Source: Candidatus Krumholzibacteriia bacterium
Lineage (GTDB): Bacteria > Krumholzibacteriota > Krumholzibacteriia > Krumholzibacteriales > Krumholzibacteriaceae
DNA length: 64,000 bases
NCBI GenBank assembly: GCA_963836185.1
Contig: CAWIIQ010000002.1
Coordinates: forward strand, 160,001 to 224,000
Direction: 5' to 3'
The notes below the pieces were generated by a model. That model was not told the origin of the DNA. It was given only the letters and a program-made list of their open reading frames with translations, and searched no databases. Below are positions 3,894 through 42,162 of the stretch, piece after piece. Each line of letters starts with the position of its first letter. Position 1 is the stretch's first letter. Position numbers and translations under genes: made by a program.

Positions 3894-4152
3894 AGGGGAA
3901 TCAATCAGATATTTAAAGTAATATCCCTATACGTTCAAGTAGATATTGGCTTGCACTGGTCCGAATATCGTTTATATTCGCAGCGACAGGGAAATTTTTC
4001 AGGCATTGTCGCGGGGGCCGGGTGTATAATCACTCAAGGTTCGTCCGGAAGGACGGAGGAATCCTGCGCAATCATGCGGATCTTCCCGGTGCGGACAGGT
4101 GTCCGGAGGGAAGGGACTACGCTCTAACCCCTATTGTTTTTATGCATTTGAA

Positions 4153-7255: not shown

Positions 7256-8323
7256 ATGGATGATATTCACATCAAGCTGGGCTCGTTGCCCGTCCGGATA
7301 AGTTCAGACGACGGGGACTTTCTCGAGTATACCCTCAGCCATTTTGCGCCCGTGACGATCGATCCGCCTGCACGGTGCGCCGTCGAGGCGCGCTTCACCC
7401 GGGGCCCCTGCGAAGAGGAGCAGACCGCGCTTGCCCGGTACGACCGGATCGGCAGGGGGATCTACACCGATGGAAAGACTGTGATCTGGAACACGGTCCC
7501 GTATTTCCCCGCGATGACGATGAGCTTCCTGTTCGAGGGAGAGACGCTGGCCGTCAGGGCGTATCAGAATACTTCCGGATCGATGAAAAGCACGGTGAAG
7601 AATCTCGTCAGAGCGATCTACGGCCAGTCGGAGAGCAGGAGCGTCTTCTATTTCGAGCTGCTCTACTATCTCGTCTACTACCCGGTGTTCCGGATGCTTT
7701 CCGACAGGGGGATCCATGCTCTTCACGGCGGCGGGATAGAGGCGCGCGAGAAGCGCATCGTGGTGGTGGGGGCACAGGGAACAGGCAAGTCGACGCTCAT
7801 AGCCAACCTGCTCGCCGGGTCCGGTTCGCGTTTCCTCTCCGACAACATCATCCTTTTCGACAGCAGGAGGGTGTATTCATGTCATGAGCCGGTACGCCTC
7901 GATACAGGCATGCTGGATAATGATCCCCTGCTGAGGGAGATGGTGTCGAAGATCGACCTGGATGTGCCTCTAGGGCGGACGGCTGGAAATGTCCGCCGGG
8001 AATCGTATATCGAGTCGATGGAGCCGGATATATTCATCATACCGAGGATAACCCGGTCGGCGACATCGCTCGAACCGTGCACGAAAGAGGATGTAGTCCG
8101 AAAGGCATTGTATTTCAACAGTCTTGCCGACGAGGTAAGATCCTTCGATATATTCGCCTCGGTCCTCGGGCAGGTCTTTCCCCCGAAGCTGCCTCCCTGC
8201 AGCGGGGCAGAGGCCCTCAGCGCGCTTCTTGAGGGCAGGGAGTTATACGAACTCGGCATCGGATACGGTGAGGATCCCGGGGTGACCGCGCGTGCCTTCA
8301 TCGAGAGTGTGACCAATGAGTGA
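7256..8323 (+). CDS. HPr-kinase-related P-loop kinase
   Basis: LHGGG...GAQGTGKSTL...LSDN matches the HprK-type LH...GxxGxGKS...DD pattern. Confidence 0.75.
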   Translation: MDDIHIKLGSLPVRISSDDGDFLEYTLSHFAPVTIDPPARCAVEARFTRGPCEEEQTALARYDRIGRGIYTDGKTVIWNTVPYFPAMTMSFLFEGETLAVRAYQNTSGSMKSTVKNLVRAIYGQSESRSVFYFELLYYLVYYPVFRMLSDRGIHALHGGGIEAREKRIVVVGAQGTGKSTLIANLLAGSGSRFLSDNIILFDSRRVYSCHEPVRLDTGMLDNDPLLREMVSKIDLDVPLGRTAGNVRRESYIESMEPDIFIIPRITRSATSLEPCTKEDVVRKALYFNSLADEVRSFDIFASVLGQVFPPKLPPCSGAEALSALLEGRELYELGIGYGEDPGVTARAFIESVTNE

Positions 8324-9746
8324 TGACAAGATAAAGCTGCTCTTTGACGAGTCCTTCGATCCCGACGAGAGGCTGATCGCCTCGCTGAAGGATATAGCCG
8401 GTATCGACGACGTGCATATGGTAGTCGGCATGGTCGACCTGCACCTGAAGAAGAATACGGAGAATCCCTCGAGCGTCGCTATCGCGACGCGCGAGAGGCT
8501 CATCCCCAAGCTTTCAAGCGTGGCCCAGAACTGCGGGATGGCGATCGCGGCGACAAATCTCACGACGGGCGATGCCGGGGTGGAGAGGCTGGAGGAGCTC
8601 TTCGGCAGGATGAGGGCCGAGGATGACACGCTTATGCGGCACCCGGGGATGAGCGTCGAGGATATGAGAAGGGCCGCGTGCCTCGGAGCGCCCTGGGCGG
8701 CGGAAAAGGCGGGGCTCCCCGTTGATTTCCCGGAAAATATCGAGTTCGGGGGAGCCGTCGGCAGGACCGATCTGCTTTCGTGGAAGGAGCTCGGGAAACT
8801 GGTCCCGCGTTATTCCCTCGATCGCGGAAGGTACGGGTTCGGGGTGATTCCGGCCGGCAACCATTTCCTGGAGATACAGGCGGTGGACGAAGTGATCGAC
8901 GGGGAAGAATGCGAAAGGCATGGTATCCGCGAGAACGGGATCATGATAATGATCCATTCCGATGGAGGCCTCATATCAGACGATATAGGAAACCTGTACG
9001 GGAACCGGACGACCGCGAAGGGATACATCAGGGCTCTTTATAACGTAAGGAAGACGGCCCTGCATCTTCGCGACTGGCGGGGGGTGGAGAACTGGAAGGA
9101 AAAGAAGGAGTATTACTTCGGCGCTGGCAGGTATATCCAGATCTCCCCAGGGACGGATGAGGGGAAGCGGTTCCTCAAGGCGAAGGACCTTTCGATGAAT
9201 GCCGGGTATGCTTCGAGAGTGACTACGATGGGAAGGGTGAAGAGGCTCATGGGAGAGGTCTTCCCCGAGGGGCCGTTCGATATGCGACTGCTCTGCGATT
9301 TTTCACATAATTCTATTTTCCGCGAGACGATCGACGGCAGCCCCGTGTGGGTGCACCGTCACAACGCGTGCAGAGTCGTAGAAGGACAGCTCGTATTTCT
9401 GCCCGGATACAGTAATACATCTTCGTATATCTGCGCAGGTTCTTCCGGCGCCCGCGATTTCCTCAACACTATGGATCACGGGGCCGGGAAGACGATAGAC
9501 CGGTTGAAGAAGAAGGGACTCGTGCGTGAGCTCGGAAACGGACGCGTCACGAGGAGCTACAACAATGAGTCACCGGAACCGAAACAGGTCCCTCATGTGT
9601 CCGACGAAGGCATAGACGCGGTTATCGAATCACTGGGCCGTAACGATATCGTGAGGCCTGTCGCGAGGCTGAGGCCCATGGCCGGTTACCGCTATCTCTG
9701 GAAGGGCCGGCTGGCACGGGCACGAGAGAAGATAACGGCCGGCTAG
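8316..9746 (+). CDS. Diverged RtcB-family (GTP-dependent ligase) protein
   Basis: RtcB motifs in canonical order: DLH, NCGM, GNHFLEIQ, MIHS, SHN, VHR, LPG, HGAG, LRP. Start overlaps the kinase stop. Confidence 0.8.
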   Translation: MSDDKIKLLFDESFDPDERLIASLKDIAGIDDVHMVVGMVDLHLKKNTENPSSVAIATRERLIPKLSSVAQNCGMAIAATNLTTGDAGVERLEELFGRMRAEDDTLMRHPGMSVEDMRRAACLGAPWAAEKAGLPVDFPENIEFGGAVGRTDLLSWKELGKLVPRYSLDRGRYGFGVIPAGNHFLEIQAVDEVIDGEECERHGIRENGIMIMIHSDGGLISDDIGNLYGNRTTAKGYIRALYNVRKTALHLRDWRGVENWKEKKEYYFGAGRYIQISPGTDEGKRFLKAKDLSMNAGYASRVTTMGRVKRLMGEVFPEGPFDMRLLCDFSHNSIFRETIDGSPVWVHRHNACRVVEGQLVFLPGYSNTSSYICAGSSGARDFLNTMDHGAGKTIDRLKKKGLVRELGNGRVTRSYNNESPEPKQVPHVSDEGIDAVIESLGRNDIVRPVARLRPMAGYRYLWKGRLARAREKITAG

Positions 9747-9758
9747 GGCGCTGTAAGG

Positions 9759-10397
9759 GTGTTGTTGCGGACTATGAACCAGACTGGCGGCGGCGAATAT
9801 AAACTGCTCTTTCTCCTGCCCGTTTTCCCTGACACAGGCAGGGTCCTCCTGCTCGACATCGGATCAGACAGCCTGGAGCGGCGGCTCTCCGCAATGGGGA
9901 TAGAATGCCGCACGGGAAGCGTTGATGACGTGTCGCGGGATGACGCCGGCGCAGGCAGGTTCGATTTGATCGTCGCAGGCAGGATGCCGTCGGGCCGCCG
10001 GGCCATGGATATGTTCAAGCGATCGGTCGGCGGCCTTCTTACAGGTACCGGCTGGCTGGTCGTCGTCTCGCCGAACAGGTTCGGATACTCGAGGCTGGCG
10101 GGCAGAGGCGGGGGCGGCGCTGGCAGCTCGCTCGGCGCGATGCGGGGAATGGTTAGAAAGATGGGATTTACCGACATCCACATATATTCTCCGGTCCCGG
10201 ATACGGCCAATCCATCGGCCTTCATCTCGCTTTACGGATCGAATTCGCTCGAGTTCCTTCTCGGGCAGTTTCCCGATTTTATCTCGGCCCGGTCGGGCCC
10301 CGTAAGGGGTATCCTGTCGTTATTGATACGGACCGGCATATTCAGGTACGTCCAGAATTACTACGCGATAGTCGCCGGCGGGCGGGAACAGGTGTAA
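9759..10397 (+). CDS. Class I methyltransferase-fold protein, probably degenerate
   Basis: VLLLDIG, FDLIV and LL...GWLVVVSPNR pattern; glycine-rich SAM motif I is incomplete (DIGSDS). Confidence 0.5.
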   Translation: MLLRTMNQTGGGEYKLLFLLPVFPDTGRVLLLDIGSDSLERRLSAMGIECRTGSVDDVSRDDAGAGRFDLIVAGRMPSGRRAMDMFKRSVGGLLTGTGWLVVVSPNRFGYSRLAGRGGGGAGSSLGAMRGMVRKMGFTDIHIYSPVPDTANPSAFISLYGSNSLEFLLGQFPDFISARSGPVRGILSLLIRTGIFRYVQNYYAIVAGGREQV

Positions 10398-10411
10398 GAA
10401 ACAGGATCCGC

Positions 10412-11416
10412 ATGTTGTTCTATCTGAAAAATATGATCGCCGAACGCCTCGGTATCCGCGACACCGATGAAGCTGTGGTGACGAGGGTAGAGGCAGGCAC
10501 AAAAGCGGTCCTCTTCTTCTTCCTCGAGAGGGGAAGCATCGTGCCGTCTATCGTAGTCAAGGCGGCAAGCGATCCCCGTTTCAATGATGAGCTGCGCGGT
10601 GAAAGTGCGAACCTAGGATACCTCAGGGATATACTTTCAGATGGCCTGGGCGGCGGCGTTCCCGCAGTCGAGGCCGACGGGGAATGGATGGGGCTGTACT
10701 ACTACGCCCAGCGTTATTTTCCCGGTGTCATGCTCGACGAGACGATCGACGACGTCGAGCCTTCCGGGGAGGGGACTGGTCCCGGGAGGGGATTACGGGC
10801 CGCCTGGCGGTGGCTTGATGATTTCCAGGAAGCGACGGCGTCGGAGCCGGTCATGCTCGGCCGGTCCGGTCTCGATATCTTGTTCGGCTCGTACAGGGAA
10901 GCCTTCGCCCCGGAAGGGGACGAAGCGGCATATCTCGGCAGTCTCGAGAAGAGGCTGGCGGACCGCCATGAAGGGGAGACAGGCATGTCCGCCTGTCACG
11001 GGGACTTCTTTCCCGGGAATATCATCCTGTCCGGCGACCGGGTGACCGTGATCGACTGGCGGTTCCTGCGCAGGTCGTACAACCGGTTCTTCGATTTCTT
11101 CACCCTGCTCCTGACGTTTTACGCGTCCGAGGGTGGAGTGACCGACTATGATGATCACGAGGGGCATTTCAGGAGACTTTTCTTCGAGAAGCACTGGACC
11201 AACGATCTGTTCTCCGGTCTCTGCCGCGAGTTCCTGGAACGAAACGGGACCGATGCCGGACTGTTCGGACTGATGCTTGAACTGACCCTTCTCGAGTGGT
11301 CCGTCAGGGAGTTCAGATCCAGCGGAACGACAGGGGAGATGGACATCATCTGGCGCACGAGATTCCTGTACCACATGAATAACAGGGATCGCTTCATCCT
11401 CGGGAGCGTGGAGTAG
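10412..11416 (+). CDS. Aminoglycoside phosphotransferase / choline-kinase-like kinase
   Basis: VVK lysine, CHGDFFPGNI catalytic loop, VIDW metal-binding motif. Confidence 0.85.
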   Translation: MLFYLKNMIAERLGIRDTDEAVVTRVEAGTKAVLFFFLERGSIVPSIVVKAASDPRFNDELRGESANLGYLRDILSDGLGGGVPAVEADGEWMGLYYYAQRYFPGVMLDETIDDVEPSGEGTGPGRGLRAAWRWLDDFQEATASEPVMLGRSGLDILFGSYREAFAPEGDEAAYLGSLEKRLADRHEGETGMSACHGDFFPGNIILSGDRVTVIDWRFLRRSYNRFFDFFTLLLTFYASEGGVTDYDDHEGHFRRLFFEKHWTNDLFSGLCREFLERNGTDAGLFGLMLELTLLEWSVREFRSSGTTGEMDIIWRTRFLYHMNNRDRFILGSVE

Positions 11417-14696: not shown

Positions 14697-14745
14697 TGTC
14701 TGATATTTATTGCGGAGAAACAGGAAATCGGTCCGGGGGAGAACC

Positions 14746-16610
14746 ATGTGCGGCATATTCGGGATATATAGCCTGGACGGGCGCGGCGTCGATGAGCGGG
14801 AATCGGCGCGCATGCTCGATTTGCTGTCTCACAGGGGGCCCGACGGGAAAGGGACCTTCTGCGATGATCGAGTATTCCTCGGGCACGCGAGACTCAGCAT
14901 CATAGATGTCGAGGGAGGCAGCCAGCCGATCTTCAGCGAGGACGGGAACATCGCCATAGTCGGGAACGGCGAGATCTACAATCACGAGGAACTGCGGCGC
15001 GGCCTGATCAGCAGGGGGCACACTTTCAAGACGCGTTCCGATATCGAAGTGCTCGTTCACCTCTACGAAGAGGAGAAGGAGGGTTTTCTCGACAAGCTCA
15101 ACGGGATGTTCGCTTTCGCCATCTACGACAGGAGGGCGGGCGAGCTCTTCATCGCGCGTGACAGGATAGGGATCAAGCCGCTTTACTACTATTATGACGG
15201 CGGCAGACTGATCTTTTCATCCGAGATGAAGGCGATCATCAAGTCGGGACTTATCCCTCTCGAGGTAAACGATACCGTCGTATACCAGTTTCTCACGCTT
15301 CATTTTTCCGTGCCTCCTGATACCCTGATCAAGGGGATCCAGTCGCTGAGACCGGGTCATTACATCTTCGCCGGACGCGGGGAGCCGCAGCAGAAGCAGT
15401 ACTGGGATATCAGCCCCGACCCGGACGAACCGCCCCTGCCTCCCGCGGAGTCACTCCGGGAAGTCGAATCGCTTCTGATCGATTCGGTCGAGAAGAGACT
15501 GATGAGCGACGTGCCCCTCGGGCTTTATCTCAGCGGCGGGATAGACTCGAGCCTCATCGCCGCGCTGATGCACAATATGGTAGGCGACGGGATAAAGACC
15601 TTCTCTATCGGTTACCGCGAAAAGGAATACTCTGAGCTGCCCTGGGCGAAAAAGGTCAGCGAGATGATCTCCTCCGACCATACGGAAGTCATCGTCTCTC
15701 CTGACGAGATAAAGCACAATATCGAGGATGTCATATGGTACCGCGAGACACCGATCTCCGAGCCCGCTGATATCCCGATATTCATGCTCAGCCGGGCCGC
15801 GGCGAAGAAGGTCAAGGTCGTCCTTACCGGGGAGGGGGGGACGAGGTATTCGCAGGATACCACAAGTATGTCTTCGAGGACTGGGCGCGCAAAGCGGCGC
15901 TACTGAGGAATCCAGCCGCACGGGCGATGCTGATGAATCCCATGGCGCAGAAGATGTTTCCGCAGAGGATCAATACAGCCCTCGATCTCTTTTCGGAGAA
16001 GGACAGGTTTCGAAGGTACTACAGGTGGTTCAGCTATTTCAGGGACGAGGAGCTGCGCGGCATGGTCAAGCCCGGGAGGGCCGGATTCGTGTCGGGAAGG
16101 AACTTCTACAGGGAGATAGCTGGGGACAGGAGATTCAGGAACGGCCTCGACGAGATGCAGTATCTCGATGTCAAGGTATGGCTGCCCGATAACCTCCTTC
16201 TCAGGGGAGACAGGATGTCGATGGCTTCCGGCCTGGAGGCTCGTGTGCCCTTTCTCGATCACAGGCTCGTCGAGCTGAGCTATCGCCTCGGCATGTCGAT
16301 GAAGGTGAGGAAAAATTCAGGCAAGTACGTCATAAAGAAGATCGCCGAGAAATATCTTGATAAGGAAATAATCTACCGGAAAAAGGTTGGTTTCGCCGTG
16401 CCGGTCAGCGACTGGCTGCGGACCGACCTGAGGGATTTTCTGCAGGATCATCTGACGCGGAGCAATTCGTTCAGCGGAGGGATCTTCAGGAAAGAGAGTA
16501 TTGAGACGATGATCGACGACCATGCGTCAGGCAGGATGGACAACCACAAGAAGCTGTGGATCCTTCTTAACCTTGAGCTTTGGTACGACCAGTTCATCGG
16601 CGGCGCGTAA
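14746..16610 (+). pseudogene. asnB: Asparagine-synthase-like glutamine amidotransferase, frameshifted at a G7 tract (15834-15840)
   Basis: MCGIFG, HRGPD, NGEIYN, LSGGIDS in the first frame. LTGEGG|DEVFAGY needs one extra G. GLEARVPFLDH and RKKVGF follow in the second frame. Could be a sequencing error. Confidence 0.88.
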
Positions 16611-21227: not shown

Positions 21228-21313
21228 ATAACCTGACTCTGCGGAACGGTTATAATTGATGTAATTGTAAGGGGTTGATGAGATCGCTCCGGTATAACGG
21301 CCGGCGGGTGAAG

Positions 21314-22087
21314 ATGAATATCGAAGAGTTCAAGACGAAGATCAAGAGGAGGGAGTCGCCCTTCTACGACCGGCTCTACCGGATCGCGAAGTCGGGGCAG
21401 CAGATGGAGATGCCGTATATCCCCGGGCTGCATGATCTCGGTTATCACGAACGGAAGTTCAGGGTATCGGCCTGGCGTTCGTTCTGGCGCGTCGTCTACC
21501 ATCAGCCTCTCTTCCGCAGCAGATGCGTCGAGTGCGGAAAGCATCTCTTTATCGACAACACCGGACAGGGCCTTCCCTTCATAGAGGGCAACCTCAAGAT
21601 CCATATCGGGGATAACGTTTTTCTCTACGACAGGATCACCCTGGCGGGCCTTACTGTTTCCGATGATCCCGTTCTTACCATAGGTGACAATACGGAGATC
21701 GGGATGCCGCTCGCGATAATGGTGGGCAGCGAAGTGACTATCGGTTCGAACTGCCTGATCGCGTGCTCTCTTATCACGGACAATCCAGGACACAACCTAG
21801 ACTACAAGAAGAGGTTCCAGAAGCTGCACAAGATCCTCATCGGCAAGGTCAAGATAGGCAACTATGTCCTGGCGGCCCATCAGTCGATGATAGTCGGCAA
21901 CGTTACGATCGGCGATGGAGCAGTGATAGGTGTGAACAGCGTTGTGACCACAGACATACCGCCGTTCTGCGTGGTCGCCGGCAATCCGGCGAGGATTGTG
22001 AAAAAGCTTCGTTTCCCGAAGGAGATGCGAGAGGTGCTCGGGGAGGAAGAGTACCAGAAGTATCTCGATGCCGAGATCCAGCCCTGA
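21314..22087 (+). CDS. Hexapeptide-repeat (LbH) acyltransferase
   Basis: IGDN repeats and VTIGDGAVIGVNSVVTTDIP...VAGNPAR. Confidence 0.9.
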   Translation: MNIEEFKTKIKRRESPFYDRLYRIAKSGQQMEMPYIPGLHDLGYHERKFRVSAWRSFWRVVYHQPLFRSRCVECGKHLFIDNTGQGLPFIEGNLKIHIGDNVFLYDRITLAGLTVSDDPVLTIGDNTEIGMPLAIMVGSEVTIGSNCLIACSLITDNPGHNLDYKKRFQKLHKILIGKVKIGNYVLAAHQSMIVGNVTIGDGAVIGVNSVVTTDIPPFCVVAGNPARIVKKLRFPKEMREVLGEEEYQKYLDAEIQP

Positions 22088-22135: not shown

Positions 22136-23512
22136 TCAGATGTATACCATGGCAAGGAACTTGTAGAGCACTATGCTGAAGCCGATTATGGCTATGATGA
22201 AGAGGATGTCTTTCTGGGTGAAGCCGCGGTTCTGCCTGACCGGAGGTTCACAGAACCTCAACAGAAGAGTTACAAGGGCGAAGATGATATACAGGACAGG
22301 GGTGTAGGCCTGGGAGAGGAAGACGGCGCTCGAGAGGAATCCGATCAGCGAGAGCTGGAGGATCTTCGCGTACTTGACGTAGATCTCACTGCCGTTTTTT
22401 TCTACTGCCCTGAGTCCGGCATAACTCGAGTATATAAGCGCGAGCCATACGCCGTATCCGAGGAAGCCCAGTTCAGACATGCACTGGATGAAAGCGCTGT
22501 GCGCGGCGCGTATGTGGTAAGCCTGGAAGTTAGCCGGCCCGACGCCGAACAACGGGTGCCCTTTGAGCATGACCAGCCCGGATATCCATGCATTCACCCT
22601 GCCGCTCGCGGAGGCCTCGTAAGGAGAGACATTGCCCATCCTGCTCGGCGCTAGTACCAGCGCGACTCCGATAAAGAGAACGCCCGTGACGATCCCCTTG
22701 AGCAGTCCCCACCTCTTGACGGCAAAGACCGAGAGGATGACGATCAGCGCGACATATCCTCCTCTTGAGTTCGTGTAGTAGATAGCGGCAAGGAGCAGGA
22801 GCGAGACGACCAGCAGCAGCATCTTCCGCTGCCTGCTGATCGAGGAGTCGAACAGGTTTATCAGTATGAACGGGATGAAGGCGTTGATCGCCAGGGCGTA
22901 GTCGTTCGGGTCGCCGAACAGGCCTACCCAGTGTATCCTGCCCAGGATCGGTGTGATTCCCGCCAGGTCGTACCCCCTGAAGTGCATGATCAGACCGTTT
23001 ATCGCGAGGGCGATGGTACAGCCGACGAGTGTCCAGCAGACCATGCGGAACTGGTCAAAGTTTGTAGTGAGGTTCACCATGATCATAAACAGCAGGAATA
23101 CGGTCAGCACTACATAGACTCCCTGCCAGTCGGGCGCTACGCCGAGGTTCACGATATGGCTGATGAATACGAGCCCGAGAAACAGCATCATAAGGATGCT
23201 GTTCCGCGAAGAGGCTATACTCATGGGCTCCTTGCGGAACACCTTGTGCACGATGAATGTGACGATGATAAGAACGGCGAGAAAGAGCATCACGCGCAGT
23301 TTCTGGAGAGCGGGGAAGATCAGCTGAAACTGAGCATAGATCATGATGATGTAGAGGATCAGCCCGGAGAAAGGCCGGAAAAACACCATCGCGCCGAGGG
23401 CCGCCGCTCCCATCAATCCAGCCGCGGCGGGAACAGAAGCCATCGCGACCAGCGAAGCGACTGCCGCCAGGACGACGAACAGGATGATTACTAATGGAGC
23501 GCTCTTTTTCAT
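22136..23512 (-). CDS. O-antigen ligase / Wzy_C family membrane protein
   Basis: Many TM helices; GDPNDYA, TNSRGG, SASGR..AW, HPLFGVG, AHS...E.G. Confidence 0.88.
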   Translation of the reverse strand: MKKSAPLVIILFVVLAAVASLVAMASVPAAAGLMGAAALGAMVFFRPFSGLILYIIMIYAQFQLIFPALQKLRVMLFLAVLIIVTFIVHKVFRKEPMSIASSRNSILMMLFLGLVFISHIVNLGVAPDWQGVYVVLTVFLLFMIMVNLTTNFDQFRMVCWTLVGCTIALAINGLIMHFRGYDLAGITPILGRIHWVGLFGDPNDYALAINAFIPFILINLFDSSISRQRKMLLLVVSLLLLAAIYYTNSRGGYVALIVILSVFAVKRWGLLKGIVTGVLFIGVALVLAPSRMGNVSPYEASASGRVNAWISGLVMLKGHPLFGVGPANFQAYHIRAAHSAFIQCMSELGFLGYGVWLALIYSSYAGLRAVEKNGSEIYVKYAKILQLSLIGFLSSAVFLSQAYTPVLYIIFALVTLLLRFCEPPVRQNRGFTQKDILFIIAIIGFSIVLYKFLAMVYI

Positions 23513-23525
23513 ATCGTTATTGCCG

Positions 23526-24650
23526 TCACTTCTTCCACCTCGCGTCGGCTCCACCTGTCATGTGAGTATACAGCGCGGCGACCGCGGCGGCATTCATTGA
23601 TATGAATACGGAGATGAAGTTGACCACCCTGTTGCTTTTCAGGCGGGCCGACTTCAGCGCGGCGGTGCCGATCGCGTACAGCGCCGCCTGCAGGATGAAC
23701 AGCATCCGGTACGGCGCTGACTCGATCATAGCCGACGATACCAGAGCCAGGATCATGCAGTAAGGGACGAGAAGCCTGAAGAGCTTGTGGGACACAGTCT
23801 GGAAGAATATCCTGTTCCGGTGAGGGTCGAAGAGCCAGTGGTTGCGCTCGAAAAGCTGGAAGTTGCCTGCCAGCGTCCTGACTTTTCTCCTGAATTCCAG
23901 CCCGATCTCCAGTGAAGCGGTGTCGTACGCTACGGCATCGCTGTCGAAGGTGACGCGGTACCCTTTCCTGAAAGCTCTCAGCGGGATCTCGATGTCGTCG
24001 AGGATCGTGTCGTCCGGTATTTCCTCGATCAACTCGCGGCGTATGGCGTAGATGGCGCCTGTGACTCCGAGGGTCGAGTCGACGTCGCTCTCCGATCTCC
24101 TCAGGATCTTCTCGTAGTGCCAGTATATCCCGACGCTTTTTTCCGTGATGTCGGTCGGCGACATGAATACGAGCTCGCCGCTCACCGCTCCGATCTCCGG
24201 ATCGTCGAAATTCCTGGCCAGCTTGCGCAGCGCGTCCGGTTCGTACATCTGCCTCGTGTCGGAGAATACGACGAGGCCGCTCTCGCACCCTTTTACGGCG
24301 ACGTTTATCTGGTGCGGTTTCCCGCGGTTGACGTCGTCTCTTATAAGGGTGATATCGTCGTATTCTTCGAGGATCGCGGTGGTCCCGTCGGTCGATCCGT
24401 CCGAGACGATGCGGACCGAGAAGAGACCGGCCGGATAATCGAGTTTCCGGCAGTTGTCGATCTTTTCCCTGATGATCCGTTCCTCGTTGTGGGCGATGAT
24501 TATCATCGTGATCGAGGGAAGCTCTTCAGCGCCGCCATGACGGGCGGGACGCCTCCCCTTCAGCCTTCCCGCCATGTAGATGATGGCAGGATAGAGGATA
24601 TACGTGTAGACGATAAACAGCACCGAAAACCAGAATGCGAACCGGATCAC
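23526..24650 (-). CDS. Glycosyltransferase family 2 (cellulose-synthase-like)
   Basis: AHNEE, SDGSTD, FSD, TGAIYAIRR, LDD, RKVR...GN.Q. Confidence 0.92.
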   Translation of the reverse strand: MIRFAFWFSVLFIVYTYILYPAIIYMAGRLKGRRPARHGGAEELPSITMIIIAHNEERIIREKIDNCRKLDYPAGLFSVRIVSDGSTDGTTAILEEYDDITLIRDDVNRGKPHQINVAVKGCESGLVVFSDTRQMYEPDALRKLARNFDDPEIGAVSGELVFMSPTDITEKSVGIYWHYEKILRRSESDVDSTLGVTGAIYAIRRELIEEIPDDTILDDIEIPLRAFRKGYRVTFDSDAVAYDTASLEIGLEFRRKVRTLAGNFQLFERNHWLFDPHRNRIFFQTVSHKLFRLLVPYCMILALVSSAMIESAPYRMLFILQAALYAIGTAALKSARLKSNRVVNFISVFISMNAAAVAALYTHMTGGADARWKK

Positions 24651-24682: not shown

Positions 24683-25696
24683 TCAGTCGTCAGCCTGTTC
24701 GATCGCTTTGGCCAGGCCTTTTCTCACGTTCTGGACAAGTTTGGCGTTGGTCTCTTCCTCTAGGCGTTCGATGGCCTCTTCACGTTCCATGTATCCTCCG
24801 CGTACGAGACCGGCCAGCTCGAACGCGTACGGATGGTAACCGAACCGCTCCTTGTGGACATCGATCCCGAGGGAGTTGAGCTGACAGTTCGTCGAGTTTG
24901 GATCGGTGTCGTCCGGCTTTTTCCATCCGAACGACTTGATCTTCTCCAGGATCTCTCTCTCATCGTATTCGAGGAATGCCAGCGGGCTGACGTTATGCGG
25001 GAAGCGATCTTCCATGGCGAAGTGCTCCTCGGTCAGGAAGTAGTTATCTATCTCCGGCCCCACGACGGCGTGCATCGGCCCGGTGAGCTGTTCCTGCATT
25101 CCCCTGATCATCGAGGGATTGTTCGGGAAGATCGACGCTTCGATGGGAGCCTGTCCCGGCGACCACCCGTAAGTGATCAGGGGGATGTTTCCCTCGATCG
25201 CCAGGCGGAGCGCTATGAACTTAACGATCCCCATGCAGGTCGTGCATATCGAACTGGCCCTCTCGAGCCCTTTTTCGGTGTAGATGTCCTCGTCGGCGCA
25301 CCGGAGGAAGAGCTTGCTGATCAGGTCGAGGCGAGGCTTAAAGATGATGTGGTCGATGCCGAGTCCCTCGACGACCTTGCGCGAGTTCTCGAGCGACTGG
25401 GGTGAGACGAATCCGTTGTCCATCGTCATGGCGAGGATCGACAGGTCGTACTCTTTTTTCAGGACGGCCATGGTATACGTCGAGTCCTTGCCGCCGCTGT
25501 ATGCCATCAGGGCGTCATAGCCGCCCTTGCGTTTCTTGCTTTCGAGAAGCTTCTCGAACTTGCCCCTGTACTTCTCCATCGATTGCTTGAGCCGTTCGAC
25601 ACCGCGGAACCGCCTGCAGAAATTACAGGCCCCTTCGTCGTCGAACTGGATTCCGGGGAATGTCTCGGGCAGTACGCATTTCGTGCATCTTATCAT
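24683..25696 (-). CDS. N-acetyl-sugar amidotransferase-like N-type ATP pyrophosphatase
   Basis: CxxC...CxxC N-terminus, PP-loop SGGKDS, CxxC, STNC. Confidence 0.75.
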   Translation of the reverse strand: MIRCTKCVLPETFPGIQFDDEGACNFCRRFRGVERLKQSMEKYRGKFEKLLESKKRKGGYDALMAYSGGKDSTYTMAVLKKEYDLSILAMTMDNGFVSPQSLENSRKVVEGLGIDHIIFKPRLDLISKLFLRCADEDIYTEKGLERASSICTTCMGIVKFIALRLAIEGNIPLITYGWSPGQAPIEASIFPNNPSMIRGMQEQLTGPMHAVVGPEIDNYFLTEEHFAMEDRFPHNVSPLAFLEYDEREILEKIKSFGWKKPDDTDPNSTNCQLNSLGIDVHKERFGYHPYAFELAGLVRGGYMEREEAIERLEEETNAKLVQNVRKGLAKAIEQADD

Positions 25697-25733
25697 CTCG
25701 TTTCCTTTCGTATCGCCGGCTGCGCGCCGGCGG

Positions 25734-26711
25734 TCATCTCATGATGAGCTCGGGAGCGGGCGGCATCGATCTGAGCATTGCCGTAGCGCTTTCCTTTCGC
25801 TCGAAATCTTTCCATGCCCTTGCGACCTGATCGATCGTCATTCCGAGCGATTCCGCGGTCTCTTCCTGGGGAATGCCGTTTCGCCGCGCGTAGAGGATCA
25901 TGTCGGCTGTATCGTAGGACATGCAGAAATAAAAATCCTTGTCGCTCACGGGGAGGCTGTACGTGTCGGGGCTGGGCGTCCTGTCAAGGACCTCCTGAGG
26001 CACCCCGAGATACTCCCCTAGCTTGAATACCTGGCTCTTGTACAGGTTCGTCAGGGGCTCGATATCGACGCCGCCATCACCGTACTTCACGAAGAATCCC
26101 TGTACCGTCTCTGGCAGGTTGGTCGTGCCGCAGACGATGTAGTAGCGTTTTTCGGCCTCGTAGTAAAGCTGGGTCATCCTGACTCTCTGCTTGACGTCGT
26201 TTGCGGCCATCATCGCGAGGTAATCGTCGCGAGCGAGCCGCTTCGATTCTATATCTCCACCCGGCATCTCGAGTTCGAGGTAATATGCGCTTATCCTGTC
26301 CCTGTCGAGCAGGTCCTGGGGAAGGGTAAGCCTGAATCTCTGTCCATCCTCGTAGTCGCTGAAGTACTTTCTGACGATCGTGTTTCTCACGTCGTAGACC
26401 CCGAAGGCCTCGACCATCGGGGTGATCTCGACTTCTTCGCACGCTATGCCGATCTCTGCGGCCACCGAACTGCCGTACTCGCGGCTGACGGGATCGGAGT
26501 CTTTCTCGGGCAGGAGCACGCCGAATACCCTGTCGGCGCCCAGGGCCCGCACGGAGAGCGCGGCCGCGACGGTCGAATCGATGCCGCCGCTGAGGCCTAT
26601 GATTATTCCTTTTCTCCTGAACACGCCCGTGACCTGCTCTCGTATGAAATCCACGAGCTGCCCGGCGACTTTTTCTGCGTCGAAATCAAGAACGCTTCTA
26701 TCGAATACCAT
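25734..26711 (-). CDS. NadE-like amide ligase, ACP-cluster paralog 1
   Basis: GLSGGIDS, KQRVRM, GTTN, FVKYGDG, LYKSQV, PSPDT; large insertion relative to housekeeping NadE. Confidence 0.85.
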   Translation of the reverse strand: MVFDRSVLDFDAEKVAGQLVDFIREQVTGVFRRKGIIIGLSGGIDSTVAAALSVRALGADRVFGVLLPEKDSDPVSREYGSSVAAEIGIACEEVEITPMVEAFGVYDVRNTIVRKYFSDYEDGQRFRLTLPQDLLDRDRISAYYLELEMPGGDIESKRLARDDYLAMMAANDVKQRVRMTQLYYEAEKRYYIVCGTTNLPETVQGFFVKYGDGGVDIEPLTNLYKSQVFKLGEYLGVPQEVLDRTPSPDTYSLPVSDKDFYFCMSYDTADMILYARRNGIPQEETAESLGMTIDQVARAWKDFERKESATAMLRSMPPAPELIMR

Positions 26712-28282
26712 TATTTCAATCCCTTCTTCGTGATCTTTCCCGAAGAGGTCATCGGAAGCGAATCGCGTATTTCTATCTTCCCAGGGACCATGAAGTCCTC
26801 CAGGCTGGCGCTGCAGTGGGCGAGTATCTCTTTCTCGGAAAGCTCCGAGCCCTCGCGCAGCACGACGAATCCTTTTATCGCCTCACCGAGCAGGTCGTCG
26901 GGCACGCCGATCACGGCGGCTTCGACAATCCCGTCCAGGGCGTAGAGCACGCTCTCCACCTCTTTCGGGCTGACCTTCTCACCCCTGCTCTTTATGATAT
27001 CGTCCTTCCTCGACACGAAGTAGAGAAAACCTTCCTCGTCCATCCTGAAGAGGTCTCCCGTGTAGAGTGATTTCTCCCATGGAAAGAGCCCCGCACGCAG
27101 CATCTCCGCCGTCTCCCCGGGCCGTTCCCAGTATCCCTGCATCACGTTCGGTCCCCGCACTACCAGCTCGCCGGTCACGTCCGGTTCCTCGATCAGACGG
27201 CCCTTTTCATCGATGAGGTAGACCTCCTCGTTCGGCATTCCCTTTCCTACTGATGCCGGCCTGCGCTCCAGCTCCGCCGGCGGCAGGTAGGAGACCCGCT
27301 TGCACTCGGTCAGGCCGTACATCGAGTATATCGATGCGCCCGGGAAGATCCGCTGCAGCCCCCTTATATGGCTGACCGGAAGGGCCGCGGCAGTGTTGGT
27401 CAGATATCTCAGCGATGGAAACTCTTCCGTCTCGAGCTCCTTGAGTTGAAGGAGGATCGCCGACATCGTCGGCACTATCGGAAAGCCCGTCACGTTTTCT
27501 TTCTGGAGCAGATTGATCGCCTGGTAAGTATAGTTGAATGATTTCTCGAGTACGACCGTTCCGCCGAACTGGGCCGCCATTATGATCTGGTAGAGGCCGT
27601 AGTCGAACGACATGGCGAGGACGCTCAGGATGATATCGTCCTCAGTGTTATCGAGGTAGGTCGTGATCGATGTGGAGGCCGAGACCATGTTCGTATGTGT
27701 CAGCATCACACCTTTTGGATCGCCTGTGGTTCCCGACGTGTAGACCAGCGCGGCGAGATCGATATCGATCGACCGTCTTTCGGGTCTCGAGTCGTCCTCG
27801 ACTGAAAGAGCTTCTTCCCATTCGATGAGTCTCATCCCGGCCGGCGCCTCTTCCCGGATCCCGTCGCGCATCTTTCCGGCGACGATCAGTGTGTCGAGGG
27901 AGGGGACGGTCCCGATGGCAGCCGAGACAGTCTTCCACCTCGAAGAATGAGTTATCAGAGCTGTGGCGCGGCAGTCGTTGAGTATGAATCCGGCCTTGGC
28001 GGCTTTGGTCGTAGGGTTGATCACGAGAAAGGTCGCGTCCGCCTTCAGGATCGCCCATATCGAGATCACGGCCTCGACCGAGTTGTACGCGAGAACGGCG
28101 ACTCGGTCGTGATACCCCACTCCGCTGCCGGTCAGCGTGCGTGCGAGCCTGTTGGCGCGGCTTTCGATCTCGGAGAAGGTCAGTCGTTCGTCGCCGCATA
28201 TCAGGGCAGTCTTGCCGGGCAGCCTGTCGGCGCTTCTTTCGAGGAATTCTTGCAGCAGCATAACCGGATTCCACGGCGTCAA
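26711..28282 (-). CDS. Class I adenylate-forming ligase, copy 1
   Basis: YTSGTTGDPKG, MYGLTE, TGD, RKDDIIKSRG, SGK. Confidence 0.92.
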   Translation of the reverse strand: MTPWNPVMLLQEFLERSADRLPGKTALICGDERLTFSEIESRANRLARTLTGSGVGYHDRVAVLAYNSVEAVISIWAILKADATFLVINPTTKAAKAGFILNDCRATALITHSSRWKTVSAAIGTVPSLDTLIVAGKMRDGIREEAPAGMRLIEWEEALSVEDDSRPERRSIDIDLAALVYTSGTTGDPKGVMLTHTNMVSASTSITTYLDNTEDDIILSVLAMSFDYGLYQIIMAAQFGGTVVLEKSFNYTYQAINLLQKENVTGFPIVPTMSAILLQLKELETEEFPSLRYLTNTAAALPVSHIRGLQRIFPGASIYSMYGLTECKRVSYLPPAELERRPASVGKGMPNEEVYLIDEKGRLIEEPDVTGELVVRGPNVMQGYWERPGETAEMLRAGLFPWEKSLYTGDLFRMDEEGFLYFVSRKDDIIKSRGEKVSPKEVESVLYALDGIVEAAVIGVPDDLLGEAIKGFVVLREGSELSEKEILAHCSASLEDFMVPGKIEIRDSLPMTSSGKITKKGLK

Positions 28283-28533
28283 GCCGTCGTCTGAGTCTTC
28301 CTGCTTATATAAGCAACGAGTTTGTTTACCGATTCGAAATTATCGGGAATCAGTTCCTTGTCCGCCACCTCTAACCCGAACTCATCCTCGATGAACCCGA
28401 CGACCTCGAGCACACCTGTCGAATCTATGATTCCCACATCGAAGAAGAGATCGTCGTCGTCGAGCGAGGCATCCTCGCTGCCGAACATGAAATTTTCGAT
28501 GATGAAATTCCTGAGTTTCTCTTTCGTATCCAA
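28279..28533 (-). CDS. Acyl carrier protein, copy 1
   Basis: Acidic 84 aa protein with GIIDSTGVLE phosphopantetheine motif. Confidence 0.92.
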   Translation of the reverse strand: MDTKEKLRNFIIENFMFGSEDASLDDDDLFFDVGIIDSTGVLEVVGFIEDEFGLEVADKELIPDNFESVNKLVAYISRKTQTTA

Positions 28534-29501: not shown

Positions 29502-30702
29502 TTACCTCTTTACGAGGGCGGTTACAAGCCTGAAGAGAAGTCCCGGACGCGTCGCCGCGAGGACACGCAGCATCTTGAGCGGATCGACGCCTGTAGCGGT
29601 GATCAGGCCCGGTGTATCCTTCAGCCTCGAGATCACCTTCTCCATCTCGTCGTCATCCATCGAGTAGAACGACCTGGCGGCCTGCCAGAAGATCTCGTTG
29701 GTTCTTCCTGTCGACCGCTTCCATCTCTTCGTATACCTGCCGAGGCTTCGCGACGATACATCCTCATCTTCGATGGCCTCGACGATCGTCTCCGCCGCGA
29801 GATCGGCCCCTTCGAGCGCGTTGATGATGCCTCCGCCCGAGAAAGCGTTGTTCTGGTTGGCCGCTTCGCCGACCGCTACAAATCCGCCGGCCGCGAGCGA
29901 GGGAAGCCCCCTGGCAACGACCGAGCCTCCGACGACCAGCCTGTCTCGCTCCGCTCCCGGGCAGCGACTCTCGAGGAACCGCTCAAGATAGTCGATCGCC
30001 TTGACGCCGCCGGCCATCGCGGGATTTACGCCGAGACCGATATTGGCTCTGCCCGGTCCCTTGGGGAATACCCAGGCGTACCCTCCGGGGGCGTAGCGCC
30101 GCCCGAGATGGAACTCTATCCTGCTCTCTACGGAATCTATCCCTTCGACGAGATACTGCGCCGCAGACATGACCTCGTGAGGATGGTAGGCGCCTTTGAG
30201 GCCCGCCCAGCGGGGTGATATCGATTCGACGCCGTCCGCTCCGGCCGTCACGAGGGCGCCGGCTGAATAGTTCCGGCCGCTGGCGAGGTCGGTGATCTCC
30301 ACGCCCTTTATCCTGTGATCGTTTCTCAGCAGCCCTGTGACCTGGTGGGATGTCCGCAACTCCGCTCCCGCTTCGACGGCGAGATCGGCGAGCCTGCCGG
30401 TCGAAACGCTCGCGATCGACGATGAATCCGACACCGCGTTTCTCAGCCTCGAACCACCTGCCCCTTGGAGAGACGACGGCGAATCCTTCGATGGTCGATG
30501 AAATCAGGTCGTCATCGAGTTCGAGGAAGCGTTCGACATCCTCGCGCGGGCCGATGCCCTCGGCGCACCTCACAGGGAAGCCTATCTTCTTTCTTTTTTC
30601 AAGAAGGAGGGTCGAGAGCCCCGCACTGGCGGTGAGCGCGGCGGTCCTGGAACCGGCGGGACCGGCTCCTATGACGATGACATCGAAATTCTCGTCAAGC
30701 AT
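29502..30702 (-). pseudogene. Geranylgeranyl reductase family FAD oxidoreductase, frameshifted near 30398
   Basis: GAGPAG, RCAEG, DRERFD in frame 1; RLADLA..AGA, ADG, PGGYAWVFPKG, GEAA, GGGI in frame 2. Confidence 0.88.
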
Positions 30703-39164: not shown

Positions 39165-40154
39165 CTATCCCGCGTACCCGGCCCAGTCACGTTCAATCGC
39201 GTGAGGAAGCTGCCGGATATGCTCGGTCGCCGCGTGCTTCGAGTCGAAATCACGGTAAGCGCGATCGATCTGCTCGGTCGTGAGTCCCAACTCTTCAGCT
39301 ACAGCATTGATATCCAGCTTGTATTCCCATGCGTAAAGAAGAGGGTCGAGGATGTCGAAAGGCAGGCAGAAATAGAAATCCTTGTCCGATACGGCAAGGC
39401 TGAAGGTGTCCGGGCTGGGGGTCCGGTCCATGATTTCTCTGGGAGACCCGAAGAAGTCGCCGAGCTGGTACATCTGTGTTTTGTAAAGATGTGACACGCA
39501 CTCGAAATCGGTTCCGCCATCGCCGAACTTGCAGAAATCACCGAGCAGGAACTCGGTCTTGTTTGTCGTCCCGGCTACCATATAGTTCATCTGCTCTCCC
39601 CGGAAATACAGGGCGATCATTCGTGAGCGGATCTTTACGTTGGCCGCTGCTGTGATGGCCAGGAACTGTTTCTTCGCCAGGCGTTTTTCCGCCTTGTCGC
39701 CTTTGCCGTTATCGATACGAAGCGTATAAAAATTGTAGCGGTCGACCTCGAGGAGGTTCTGTGGAAGGCTTATATTAAACTTGTAGCTTTCGTCGTACTG
39801 CGGGAAGATCGACTTGATGATCTCATCTCTCGTACTGTAGGAACCGAAGCTGTCTACAGCGCCGGTCAGGTCCATCGTCTCATGCTGGATGCCGAGATCG
39901 TCGATGACCATCCGGGCGAATTTTGCCGAATCGGGGCTTGAATCCTTTTCGGGAAGTATCATGCCGTAGACCTTGTCTTTTCCCACAGCTGCCACGGCCA
40001 GCGCGGCGACTACGGCGGAATCGATGCCCCCGCTGACGCCGACGATGATCCCGTCCCTTTTAGGCGTTCCTTTCGTCTGTGCCGACATGAACTCCTGAAC
40101 GATGGCGGCCTCGTGCTTAGTATCGATTTTGAGGATATCCCTGATCGGTTTCAT
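39165..40154 (-). CDS. NadE-like amide ligase, ACP-cluster paralog 2
   Basis: GVSGGIDS, KIRSRM, GTTN, KFGDG, LYKTQ, PSPDT; same insertion as paralog 1. Confidence 0.85.
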   Translation of the reverse strand: MKPIRDILKIDTKHEAAIVQEFMSAQTKGTPKRDGIIVGVSGGIDSAVVAALAVAAVGKDKVYGMILPEKDSSPDSAKFARMVIDDLGIQHETMDLTGAVDSFGSYSTRDEIIKSIFPQYDESYKFNISLPQNLLEVDRYNFYTLRIDNGKGDKAEKRLAKKQFLAITAAANVKIRSRMIALYFRGEQMNYMVAGTTNKTEFLLGDFCKFGDGGTDFECVSHLYKTQMYQLGDFFGSPREIMDRTPSPDTFSLAVSDKDFYFCLPFDILDPLLYAWEYKLDINAVAEELGLTTEQIDRAYRDFDSKHAATEHIRQLPHAIERDWAGYAG

Positions 40155-40176
40155 CAAAAGTCCTTTCTTCTTTCTG

Positions 40177-41727
40177 TCAACATTCACTTTTCAGTTTTTT
40201 CTTGTCGAGCTTGCCGGATTTCGTCTTGGGCAGCGACTGGGCAAATTCTATTATCTTGGGTATTTTATGTGTGGCGAGCCGTGCGCGGCAGAAATCCGAG
40301 ATATCCCTGGCGTCGGCATCGCACCCTTTCTTGTTGACGATCACGGCTTTTATCGCCTCTCCCAGCAGGGGATCATCGACTCCGAATACGGCGACTTCCA
40401 GGATCCCTTCGTCTTCGAGAATGCACTCCTCGACTTCCTTGACGCTTACTCGGTTGCCGCCCGTCTTGATGATCTCTTTCATGCGGCCAGTGACGAAGAT
40501 ATATCCGTCTTCGTCTTTCTTGGCCAGGTCGCCGGTGAAAAGGCGCCCGCCCCTGAGGACCTGGCGCTCTTCGTCCTCGTGGTTCCAGTAGCCCAGCATG
40601 ACATTGGGGCCGTCGACCACGATCTCGCCTTCCACGCCGGGAGGCAGTTCGTTCCCGTCTTCGTCACAGACCAGCACCGTTACTCCCGGAACGGGGATGC
40701 CGATCGATCCGAGCTTCTTCTCGAGCATGTCCGGGGGAAGCCAGGTTACGCGCGGAGCGGCCTCGGTCTGCCCGTACATTATGAAGATCTCTTTAGTCGG
40801 GAAGGCGTCGATGAGCTGCCTGACAACCTCCGGTGCCATCGCGCCGCCGGCCTGCGTGAAATATCTCAGCGACTTCAACTCACGTTTAGCAAAAGTCGAT
40901 TTGCCCATCAGGATCATGAAGTTCGAGGGAACTCCCGAGAAGCCCGTCACATTCTCGCTCTCCATCGTATCGAGTACTGCTTCCGGGTAGAGGAAGCGGT
41001 TATCGATCACTGTCCTGCCGCCGCAGCCGATGTGTGTGAGAAGCAGGGAATTGCCGTAGATGTAATAGAAGGGCAGGATGACCATTATGGCGTCTTCTTT
41101 TTCCAGCCTCAGGTACTCGATCGTCGCGATCGTATTGCTTACGAGGTTGCGGTGCGACAGCATGACGCCCTTCGGTTTGCCGGTGCTGCCAGAGGTATAA
41201 AAGATTGCGGCCAGGCTGTCTTCATCTGTTGTGCCTGCGGCAGTCCCGGAACATGTATCCGGCACCGCATCTTCCGTCAAGGTCACGACGGGCTCGACCA
41301 CCAGGTCATCACGGCCGGTACCGATCTTCTTGTTCGAAAAGACATGCTCGACGGGGGAGTTTCCGGCTACCAGTTCGGGAAGGATCCTGCGGTACCTCGA
41401 GTCGACCAGGAGGGCCTTGGCGTTACAATCCGCCAGGACGAATCTCAGGCTGTCCGCTCCGAGCGAAGTGTCAAGAGGTACAACCACGAATCCGGCCTTG
41501 AATACGGCAAAAAACGCGATGACGTATTCGATTGAATTTTCGAAGAGCACTCCGACCGGTGATCCCGCAGGGAGCGGGAGTTTTCCGAGATGGTCGGCCA
41601 GATGGCACGATGACCGGTAAAGCTGGTCGAAGGTCGTGTGTTTTCCGTCGTGCGATACTGCCGTCCTGTCGGCAAACAGTTTCACGCTTTCAGATAGCAA
41701 TTCAAATACAGTCATAATCCTGCTCAC
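40177..41727 (-). CDS. Class I adenylate-forming ligase, copy 2
   Basis: YTSGSTGKPKG, MYGQTE, TGD, GR.KEIIK.GG, SGK. Confidence 0.92.
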   Translation of the reverse strand: MSRIMTVFELLSESVKLFADRTAVSHDGKHTTFDQLYRSSCHLADHLGKLPLPAGSPVGVLFENSIEYVIAFFAVFKAGFVVVPLDTSLGADSLRFVLADCNAKALLVDSRYRRILPELVAGNSPVEHVFSNKKIGTGRDDLVVEPVVTLTEDAVPDTCSGTAAGTTDEDSLAAIFYTSGSTGKPKGVMLSHRNLVSNTIATIEYLRLEKEDAIMVILPFYYIYGNSLLLTHIGCGGRTVIDNRFLYPEAVLDTMESENVTGFSGVPSNFMILMGKSTFAKRELKSLRYFTQAGGAMAPEVVRQLIDAFPTKEIFIMYGQTEAAPRVTWLPPDMLEKKLGSIGIPVPGVTVLVCDEDGNELPPGVEGEIVVDGPNVMLGYWNHEDEERQVLRGGRLFTGDLAKKDEDGYIFVTGRMKEIIKTGGNRVSVKEVEECILEDEGILEVAVFGVDDPLLGEAIKAVIVNKKGCDADARDISDFCRARLATHKIPKIIEFAQSLPKTKSGKLDKKKLKSEC

Positions 41728-41761
41728 GTTCTTTTGTATGGATGGTCGGCTTAAGCCGCGG

Positions 41762-42019
41762 TCAGCCGAGTTTCCCTGATATGAAGACCACGAGGTTGTC
41801 TATTGAATCAAGATTAGCCGGAGTCATCTCGTCATCTTCAATAGTAAAGCCGTACTGTTCCTCGATAAAGGCGACCAGTTCCAGTACACCGGTGGAATCG
41901 ATTATGCCTTCCTGCATGAACGAATCGGAATCTCCGGGACATTCTTTTTCATCGCCCATCAGGAATAGTTCGATGATGAAGTCCTTGAGCTCCTTGCGAA
42001 TAGTATCCTGCTGTGTCAT
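41762..42019 (-). CDS. Acyl carrier protein, copy 2
   Basis: GIIDSTGVLE motif, identical to copy 1. Confidence 0.92.
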   Translation of the reverse strand: MTQQDTIRKELKDFIIELFLMGDEKECPGDSDSFMQEGIIDSTGVLELVAFIEEQYGFTIEDDEMTPANLDSIDNLVVFISGKLG

Positions 42020-42162
42020 AGCCAATATCTTACCTCTGCTTCTCGAGTGCTCTTATTGCCTTCAAACTCTTCCATTAAACTTATAGGCACAAAACCTGCC
42101 CTTGTCTATAAGTTTACCGGCTGCCGGTCCTGGCCCGGACAACCCGGTGTAAACAGGCTAAA

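Follow-up and report, generated by a model that had tools for sequence, protein, structure and literature searches.

The stretch analysed here (the window) comprises 64,000 nucleotides of contig CAWIIQ010000002.1 from a metagenome-assembled genome of Candidatus Krumholzibacteriota that is 92.5% complete. At positions 24683-28533 it carries a cassette of four genes, encoding an acyl carrier protein (ACP), an adenylating ligase, a protein related to NAD synthetase (NadE-like) and an ATP-pyrophosphatase with the motif SGGKDS (the SGGKDS protein). The cassette heads a run of six genes:

28279-28533, minus strand: ACP A, acyl/aminoacyl carrier protein (PF00550), with Ser38 in the motif GIIDSTG
26711-28282, minus strand: ligase A, adenylating AMP-ligase (PF00501/PF13193) with a VinN-type pocket
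25734-26711, minus strand: NadE-like A, ATP-pyrophosphatase of the PRK00876 subfamily (NF002048), clade II
24683-25696, minus strand: SGGKDS protein, homologue of the AMDH domain encoded as a gene of its own, with CxxC/CxxC at the N-terminus and a further set C151/C154/C271
23526-24650, minus strand: GT2 glycosyltransferase, within the cassette gene run
22136-23554, minus strand: Wzy_C polymerase/O-antigen-ligase-like protein, final gene of the run

The gaps from ACP A to Wzy_C are -4, -1, 37, 32 and -29 bases, and a convergent gene for an LbH acyltransferase follows, so the run stops at Wzy_C. Gene calls and gaps bear out the original prediction, made from the letters of the window, that the ACP, AMP-ligase, NadE-like and SGGKDS genes run into those for GT2 and Wzy_C. 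The window is otherwise a polysaccharide locus with GT4 glycosyltransferases, a deacetylase, a heparinase-like protein, AsnB and a TuaH-like protein. The cassette is real, widespread and uncharacterised. It occurs in many bacterial phyla and some archaea, where it is annotated as fatty-acyl-CoA ligase and NAD synthase, and the named close homologues belong mostly to Ca. Krumholzibacteriota. Our literature searches found no description of its product, and PMC11340318 gives no link to an ACP.

Ligase A has TIGR03098 as its best NCBIfam match (466 bits, below the cut-off of 592) and VinN as its best single-domain match in the PDB; for the pocket region, the PDB search gives VinN an E value of 4.5e-28 compared with 1.6e-8 for the next entry. 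The determinants of VinN for 3-methylaspartate and aspartate, as given in the excerpted text of PMC11253843, are D230, which recognizes the amine, together with F231, S299 and a shortened loop that carries K330/R331. With an inferred offset between chain and paper numbering, D230, F231, S299, K330 and R331 correspond to D227, Y228, T297, K328 and R329 of ligase A, whose pocket set also includes M321. Ligase A carries all the marks of the VinN type, namely the Asp at 230, bulky residues at 231 and 299 and a short loop with K330-R331. Among 123 aligned ligases, 68 have the Asp, the Lys and the short-loop Arg, including the Sinorhizobium meliloti ligase SMb20650; 41 resemble the second ligase of the window (ligase B, below), without the Asp but with the Arg on a longer loop; the remaining 14 belong to other types. 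Since ligase A and SMb20650 share the VinN pocket, loading of aspartate through its beta-carboxyl group is likely, as judged from the pocket residues. Glutamate mutase (PF06368) was not found in the source genome, which favours plain Asp over 3-methyl-Asp. The acid tethered to the ACP, which the original prediction left unnamed, is thereby narrowed to a likely aspartate. It is very unlikely that the ligase loads a fatty or other simple acid and that the acyl amide is unrelated to aspartate. Generic acyl-CoA ligase annotations would suit such a substrate, and in the excerpt of PMC7232532, SMb20650 acylates the carrier SMb20651 in vivo, as seen in E. coli; the failure to find glutamate mutase also fits, although it speaks against 3-methyl-Asp and not against Asp. 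However, the pocket Asp and the Lys-Arg pair match VinN, and the same excerpt reports that SMb20650 fails to substitute for FadD, either on oleate or in the recycling of fatty acids.

A second ACP-ligase-NadE-like unit (unit B), overlooked earlier as a unit, lies at 39165-42025:

41762-42025, minus strand: ACP B, second carrier protein, 47% identical to ACP A
40177-41727, minus strand: ligase B, with the amine-binding Asp absent and an Arg in a longer loop
39165-40187, minus strand: NadE-like B (clade II), 45% identical to NadE-like A

Ligase B is predicted to load a non-amino dicarboxylate.

NadE-like A passes the cut-offs of NF002048/PRK00876 (384 bits, cut-off 313) and TIGR00552. The family keeps the NadE fold of an N-type ATP-pyrophosphatase, the SGGxDS motif and the catalytic R/T/E/K residues, and the catalytic and ATP/Mg residues are invariant across 148 rows, which fall together with the S. 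meliloti protein in a single clade (FastTree, support 100, 12 outgroup rows). First, the family differs from canonical NadE at an insert site, which holds at least 68 residues compared with 14-20 in 23 canonical rows (an insert of ~50 residues); PF02540 matches in two pieces and not as a compact synthetase domain. Second, the C-terminal canonical Lys (22 of 23 canonical rows) is replaced by Leu in 126 of the 148 rows, and the family lacks the C-terminal (H/Y/F)KR motif of NadE, which we take to bind nicotinic acid adenine dinucleotide (NaAD). Third, the housekeeping nadE that was to be sought elsewhere in the genome was found on a separate contig, as a nitrilase-fused, glutamine-dependent canonical gene. 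A survey of 121 genomes of the phylum places the NF002048 subfamily in 75 (E ≤ 1e-40) and canonical nadE in 117 (E ≤ 1e-45); 72 of the 75 paralogue carriers have the canonical gene, and in one more it is split in two, each part on a short contig. A canonical copy is thus present in the source genome and in 73 of 75 carriers, which makes the NadE-like proteins extra paralogues and in this respect supports the original prediction. Finally, the family is tied to the carrier and its ligase. In 80 NadE-like loci from GTDB genomes (some on short contigs; neighbours within 8 kb), a related ligase occurs in 64 and an ACP in 60, compared with an ACP in none of 11 canonical nadE control loci, one of which has only a distant ligase (25%) ~5 kb off. 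Two natural ligase-NadE-like fusions among 120 longer matches listed point the same way.

Six relatives' loci hold a NadE-like gene without cassette partners nearby. These 'solo' loci were considered as housekeeping genes and dropped, as canonical nadE was found together with a separate unit elsewhere, which is AsnB-ACP-ligase in four of the five genomes checked and AsnB-ACP in the fifth. A predicted complex of the NadE-like dimer with the ACP scores 0.40 (best control 0.00), with runs agreeing in at least 86% of contacts and a partner pLDDT of at least 79. Of solved pairs, 116 of 157 attain the mark applied here, as do 2 of 215 mismatched ones; a score of 0.60 or below is wrong in more cases than not, except where the pairing is likely beforehand, so the model offers weak support for the pairing. 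What is annotated as 'NAD synthetase' is likely a copy put to a new use, and NadE-like A is predicted to amidate the ACP-bound acid. That these proteins are working NAD or nicotinamide mononucleotide (NMN) synthetases which travel with the cassette is highly improbable. The cut-offs passed and the fold and core residues kept would allow it, a Francisella NadE has turned into an NMN synthetase (PMC3376133), no canonical copy was found in two draft genomes, and several genomes have a NadE-like gene with no ACP nearby. Against this stand the canonical gene in nearly all carriers, the separate AsnB-ACP(-ligase) units of the solo genomes, and the family-wide insert, loss of the C-terminal Lys and ligase fusions.

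The SGGKDS protein has 2,931 homologues of similar length, and all of the longer ones (12/12) are ligase fusions with the SGGKDS part after the ligase. Loci of at least 8 kb seeded with this family (SGG) contain the ligase in 33, the ACP in 32 and the NadE-like gene in 29 of 35 cases. The protein is 29% identical (E 1e-39) to a domain inserted in the adenylation (A) domain of an NRPS (non-ribosomal peptide synthetase). Motifs of the inserted domain from Roseovarius are near letter-for-letter those in the alignment of the CysH AMDH (PMC7966384, Supplementary Fig. 10), a comparison made by eye on the published alignment. In the excerpted text of that paper, AMDH acts on carrier-bound Asn, either by dehydration to beta-cyanoalanine or by isomerisation to isoasparagine; the CysH AMDH protein is brown, its mechanism is not known and the domain resisted crystallisation. 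The SGGKDS protein is homologous over its full length and has SGGKD and the conserved Cys pattern, but it stands alone as an open reading frame, whereas AMDH is embedded in an A domain specific for Asn. In a 36-row tree that has no bootstrap, long branches and only two WbuX rows, these not on one side, the SGGKDS rows join those of AMDH (SH-aLRT 98) apart from WbuX. Across 25 homologues C151, C154 and C271 never vary, and AMDH has equivalents of them; they may form a three-Cys Fe-S site as in TtuA.

The fold of the SGGKDS protein also brings in the sugar amidotransferases. One of the two ATP-pyrophosphatases of the cassette could act on a sugar and not on the carrier, either by joining a sugar amine to the acid that the carrier holds or by converting an N-acyl sugar to an amidine in the manner of WbuX/PseA; we regard this as unlikely, though less so than the other alternatives. 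The best fold match of the SGGKDS model is the WbuX-type 8WEX (E 4e-15, TM 0.68-0.70), followed by the TtuA/NcsA sulfurtransferases. Its tetracysteine (C4, C7, C24, C27) and SGGKDS PP-loop correspond to the tetracysteine zinc motif and PP-loop listed for WbuX/WbpG acetamidino formation in the excerpt of PMC10607449, and no dedicated transferase recurs consistently beside the cassette. However, the protein scores 146 bits with TIGR03573, below the cut-off of 203, hisH/hisF partners were not found in the 92.5% complete source genome, and HisF homologues occur in only three of the cassette loci scanned. The grouping with AMDH, the ligase fusions and the pairing of SGG with ACP in a Bacillus cluster resembling those of polyketide synthases (PKS), where the 21 kb read contain no sugar gene, likewise point away from a sugar substrate. 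The earlier label 'amidotransferase' is refined in that the protein sides with AMDH domains, which act on carriers, and not with the sugar amidotransferases.

Several related arrangements were observed in other genomes. The Roseovarius NRPS (L015:9421-17469), with its AMDH insert in an A domain of Asn code, lies among genes for polysaccharide export, a flippase and CMP-sugars, and another NRPS with such an insert (L238:3952-11846) is preceded by an ACP gene; NRPS-borne AMDH may be a second route by which this chemistry reaches glycans. A Streptomyces plasmid (L017:8190-14882) encodes AsnB, an A-T module, an AMDH-like domain fused to a condensation domain and an amino-acid racemase; the A-domain code gave no firm substrate and was not used. 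The Bacillus thuringiensis plasmid cluster (L013:9690-20740) contains an ACP, an SGGKDS protein annotated as '7-cyano-7-deazaguanine synthase', two ligases, two more carriers and AsnB, as well as a ketosynthase (KS), a thioesterase, FabZ and FabG, and its product is possibly an amide- or nitrile-bearing polyketide. The source genome has another SGGKDS-type gene (contig positions 156940-158040), 2-3 kb ahead of the window, which faces a flippase gene. It has the motif SGGRDS, is 27% identical to the first and falls on a separate branch outside the SGG and AMDH group; most relatives' loci read with a similar gene lack an adjacent cassette.

The NadE-like tree divides into clade I (71 rows, support 94), which contains the S. 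meliloti protein, and clade II (77 rows, support 90), which contains both window copies; fixed differences include Q/D257 and K/E218. Partners (AsnB and SGG at ≥40% identity) were counted in three sets, which are not summed because a few loci recur between them. The NadE-seeded set of 80 comprises 44 loci with AsnB and clade I, 10 with SGG and clade II, three with both clades, one with AsnB, clade II and SGG, 14 with clade I alone and eight with clade II alone. The corresponding figures for 20 loci from relatives are three (AsnB and clade I), eight (SGG and clade II), one (both clades) and eight (alone), and the SGG-seeded set of 80 comprises 60 with SGG and clade II, four with AsnB and SGG without a NadE-like gene, and 16 with SGG alone. 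Clade I with SGG, and AsnB with clade II in the absence of SGG, occur at zero loci in these sets. The pairings suggest two slots, an amidation slot filled by AsnB or a clade II NadE-like protein and an amide-tailoring slot filled by the SGGKDS protein or a clade I NadE-like protein. This arrangement fits CysH/AlbIV, in which Asn is loaded directly and only AMDH is needed, and the clusters of Bacillus and Streptomyces, where AsnB is paired with an SGG/AMDH protein, agree with it as well. In unit B just a clade II gene is present, and the unit may borrow the SGGKDS protein; in a congener, a clade I gene precedes the ACP. The window also contains an AsnB:

14710-16610, plus strand: AsnB-type amidotransferase, broken near 15830 by a single-base frameshift within a run of G

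The four ATP-pyrophosphatases counted in the original prediction (AsnB, NadE-like A, NadE-like B and the SGGKDS protein) are real, but its grouping of this AsnB with the cassette is not supported. The protein falls outside the 58-row clade of cassette-type AsnB (support 98; N-terminal part only, FastTree), which ruled it out as the AsnB of the cassette, and it probably works on the sugar backbone.

Glycan genes were counted within 8 kb by a reference-based scan of the long loci. They occur in 35 of 57 NadE-seeded and 20 of 23 SGG-seeded loci, or in 29 of 57 and 17 of 23, respectively, if LbH genes are not counted. Recurrent neighbours are LbH acyltransferases, GT4, an epimerase, GNAT, a priming glycosyltransferase, tandem hydrolases, Wzc/Wza and deacetylases. 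In close relatives the next gene after the cassette varies and is often GT2, Wzx or Wzy, and the Azospirillum copy lies inside a glycan locus. Aspart-4-yl, malyl and malonyl N-acyl groups occur on bacterial amino sugars, as listed in the excerpted text of PMC10609480. Two proteins of the window are candidates for the transfer of the acyl group:

21275-22087, plus strand: hexapeptide (LbH) acyltransferase, convergent to the run
2013-3893, minus strand: 626-residue GNAT_C/NAT_N-like protein, a lead only, from language-model features

The latter has no Pfam match and an atlas score of 0.93, and it seems to be duplicated, with two GNAT_C/NAT_N-like halves that both match one partial protein upstream of another cassette (L116). 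Open reading frames at 2094-3218 and 3318-4127 on the plus strand were rejected as shadow frames of this gene. In relatives (L054:6371-8377, L050:10984-13149; a 14-locus cluster), a fused alpha/beta-hydrolase pair, itself a candidate acyl transferase, is encoded just after the cassette on the opposite strand. Signal-peptide proteins with the motif FGHQSVG and no Pfam match, which appear SGNH-like by eye, recur near clade I cassettes (L145:6394-7509 and 12 other loci); tblastn did not find them in the source genome.

An alternative that we consider decidedly unlikely accepts the carrier-bound unit but has it end in a small molecule, a lipid or a protein modification, so that the glycan neighbourhood would be incidental. 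It draws on the S. meliloti asnB-acp-ligase-nadE cluster, which lies beside minCDE without glycan neighbours, whereas the window cassette is joined to GT2 and Wzy_C. It also draws on the Bacillus version among KS, FabZ and FabG genes, on the four genomes in which the NadE-like gene and AsnB-ACP-ligase are at separate sites, and on the 22 of 57 long NadE-seeded loci with no glycan gene. Against it are the run into GT2 and Wzy_C with gaps below 40 bases, the frequent GT2, Wzx or Wzy next gene in close relatives, and the recurrent priming glycosyltransferase, Wzc/Wza, GT4, epimerase and deacetylase neighbours.

We give an even chance to the reading in which a beta-aspartyl-ACP is amidated by the NadE-like protein, tailored by the AMDH-like SGGKDS protein and delivered to a surface glycan. 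It builds on what was observed directly, i.e. gene order, family assignments, pocket residues, fusions, the clade and partner pattern and the separate canonical nadE. First, ligase A would form beta-aspartyl-S-ACP, as its pocket residues indicate. The NadE-like protein would then adenylate the alpha-carboxylate and add ammonia to yield isoasparaginyl-S-ACP. In the third step, the SGGKDS protein, by homology to AMDH, would use ATP to activate the oxygen of the amide, and the outcome would be a nitrile, an amidine or isomerisation between Asn and isoAsn. Finally, a transferase would move the acyl group onto an amino sugar of the glycan, as the gene context suggests. In unit B, a non-amino dicarboxylate from ligase B would pass through equal chemistry. 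A bolder form is quite improbable, in which a carboxylate-to-amide-to-nitrile line places a cyano-bearing aspartate derivative (beta-cyanoalanyl or an isomer) on the glycan and the NadE fold has been recruited twice. In that form the fold would serve as a substitute for AsnB in clade II and for AMDH in clade I.

Several observations weigh against the delivery of an amidated aspartyl unit to a glycan. Residues R176, K209 and D216, which presumably correspond to the NaAD-contact positions of single-domain NadE, are invariant or nearly so in the NadE-like family, so NaAD as the substrate stays compatible with the sequence. The two carriers in which canonical nadE was not found are G029 (96% complete, 80 contigs) and G076 (90%, 100 contigs). 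The AsnB/SGG split tracks one deep branch of the NadE-like tree and so counts as a single contrast in evolution; the SGG-seeded sampling also raises the share of clade II. No transferase is constant with the cassette among the loci compared, and tblastn did not find the GNAT or the tandem alpha/beta-hydrolase of relatives in the source genome. To these are added the acylation of SMb20651 in E. coli, the 22 long loci without a glycan gene, the minCDE setting in S. meliloti and the PKS-like setting in Bacillus; Ramos-Vega (2009) reportedly described C12/C18 acylation.

The remaining observations concern the assembly and its surroundings. Frameshifts split AsnB (14710-16610), a geranylgeranyl-reductase-like gene (29502-30702) and canonical nadE (contig C3, ~211300-212900), and are likely sequencing errors of the long-read indel type. 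A stretch at 7256-11416 on the plus strand encodes an HprK-like P-loop protein, an RtcB-family ligase, an uncharacterised protein and an APH-like kinase inside the polysaccharide run. A promoter and terminator scan gave counts no higher than in shuffled sequence, and public sequencing runs include no RNA run listed for the locus and DNA runs with only a small share of it.

Should the NadE fold have been taken up twice in this way, 'NAD synthase' annotations in the thousands would be incorrect. The concrete prediction of Asp as the substrate makes the question about SMb20650, a protein of a laboratory strain, open since 2009, directly testable, and the clade rule (I with AsnB, II with SGGKDS) predicts which enzyme performs which step. 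Small AMDH homologues that stand alone, as the SGGKDS proteins do, make up a large family and could crystallise more easily than CysH. Neither the AMDH link nor the two-slot pattern was met in the literature reached by our searches.

We compared the cassette with five known systems. In the vicenistatin system, VinN/VinL perform beta-amino-acid adenylation onto a stand-alone carrier. Ligase A keeps D230, an aromatic 231, S/T299, K330, R331 and the short loop, with Tyr for Phe231 and Thr for Ser299; however, no glutamate mutase for 3-methyl-Asp was found here, and the downstream enzymes are ATP-pyrophosphatases and not a macrolactam PKS. The NadE-like family shares the fold and the ATP/Mg residues of the ammonia-dependent NAD synthetase NadE, but differs in the ~50-residue insert, in the change of the C-terminal Lys to Leu, in being a second or third copy beside canonical nadE, and in its linkage and fusion to a carrier-loading ligase. 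The AMDH of CysH (cystobactamid) and AlbIV (albicidin) has SGGKDS, DNG, the central CxxC, STNC and the C-terminal H-x-Y...VRxG in common with the SGGKDS protein, which has YGWSPGQ for TGLSRGQ, lacks FYRY and occurs as a gene of its own or fused C-terminally, where the AMDH of CysH and AlbIV is inserted into an A domain specific for Asn. The N-acetyl sugar amidotransferases WbuX/WbpG/PseA (8WEX) have the tetracysteine zinc motif, the PP-loop and the fold in common with it; in contrast, the SGGKDS protein is below the TIGR03573 cut-off, has no hisH/hisF partners and lies outside the WbuX rows of the tree. Lastly, the S. meliloti cluster SMb20649-SMb20652 (nadE1, ligase, ACP, asnB), which the original prediction had named as similar, is orthologous, with identities to the window genes of 46% for the ACP, 52% for the ligase, which has the same pocket, and 38% for the NadE-like protein. 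It combines a clade I NadE-like protein with AsnB, whereas the window combines clade II with the SGGKDS protein.

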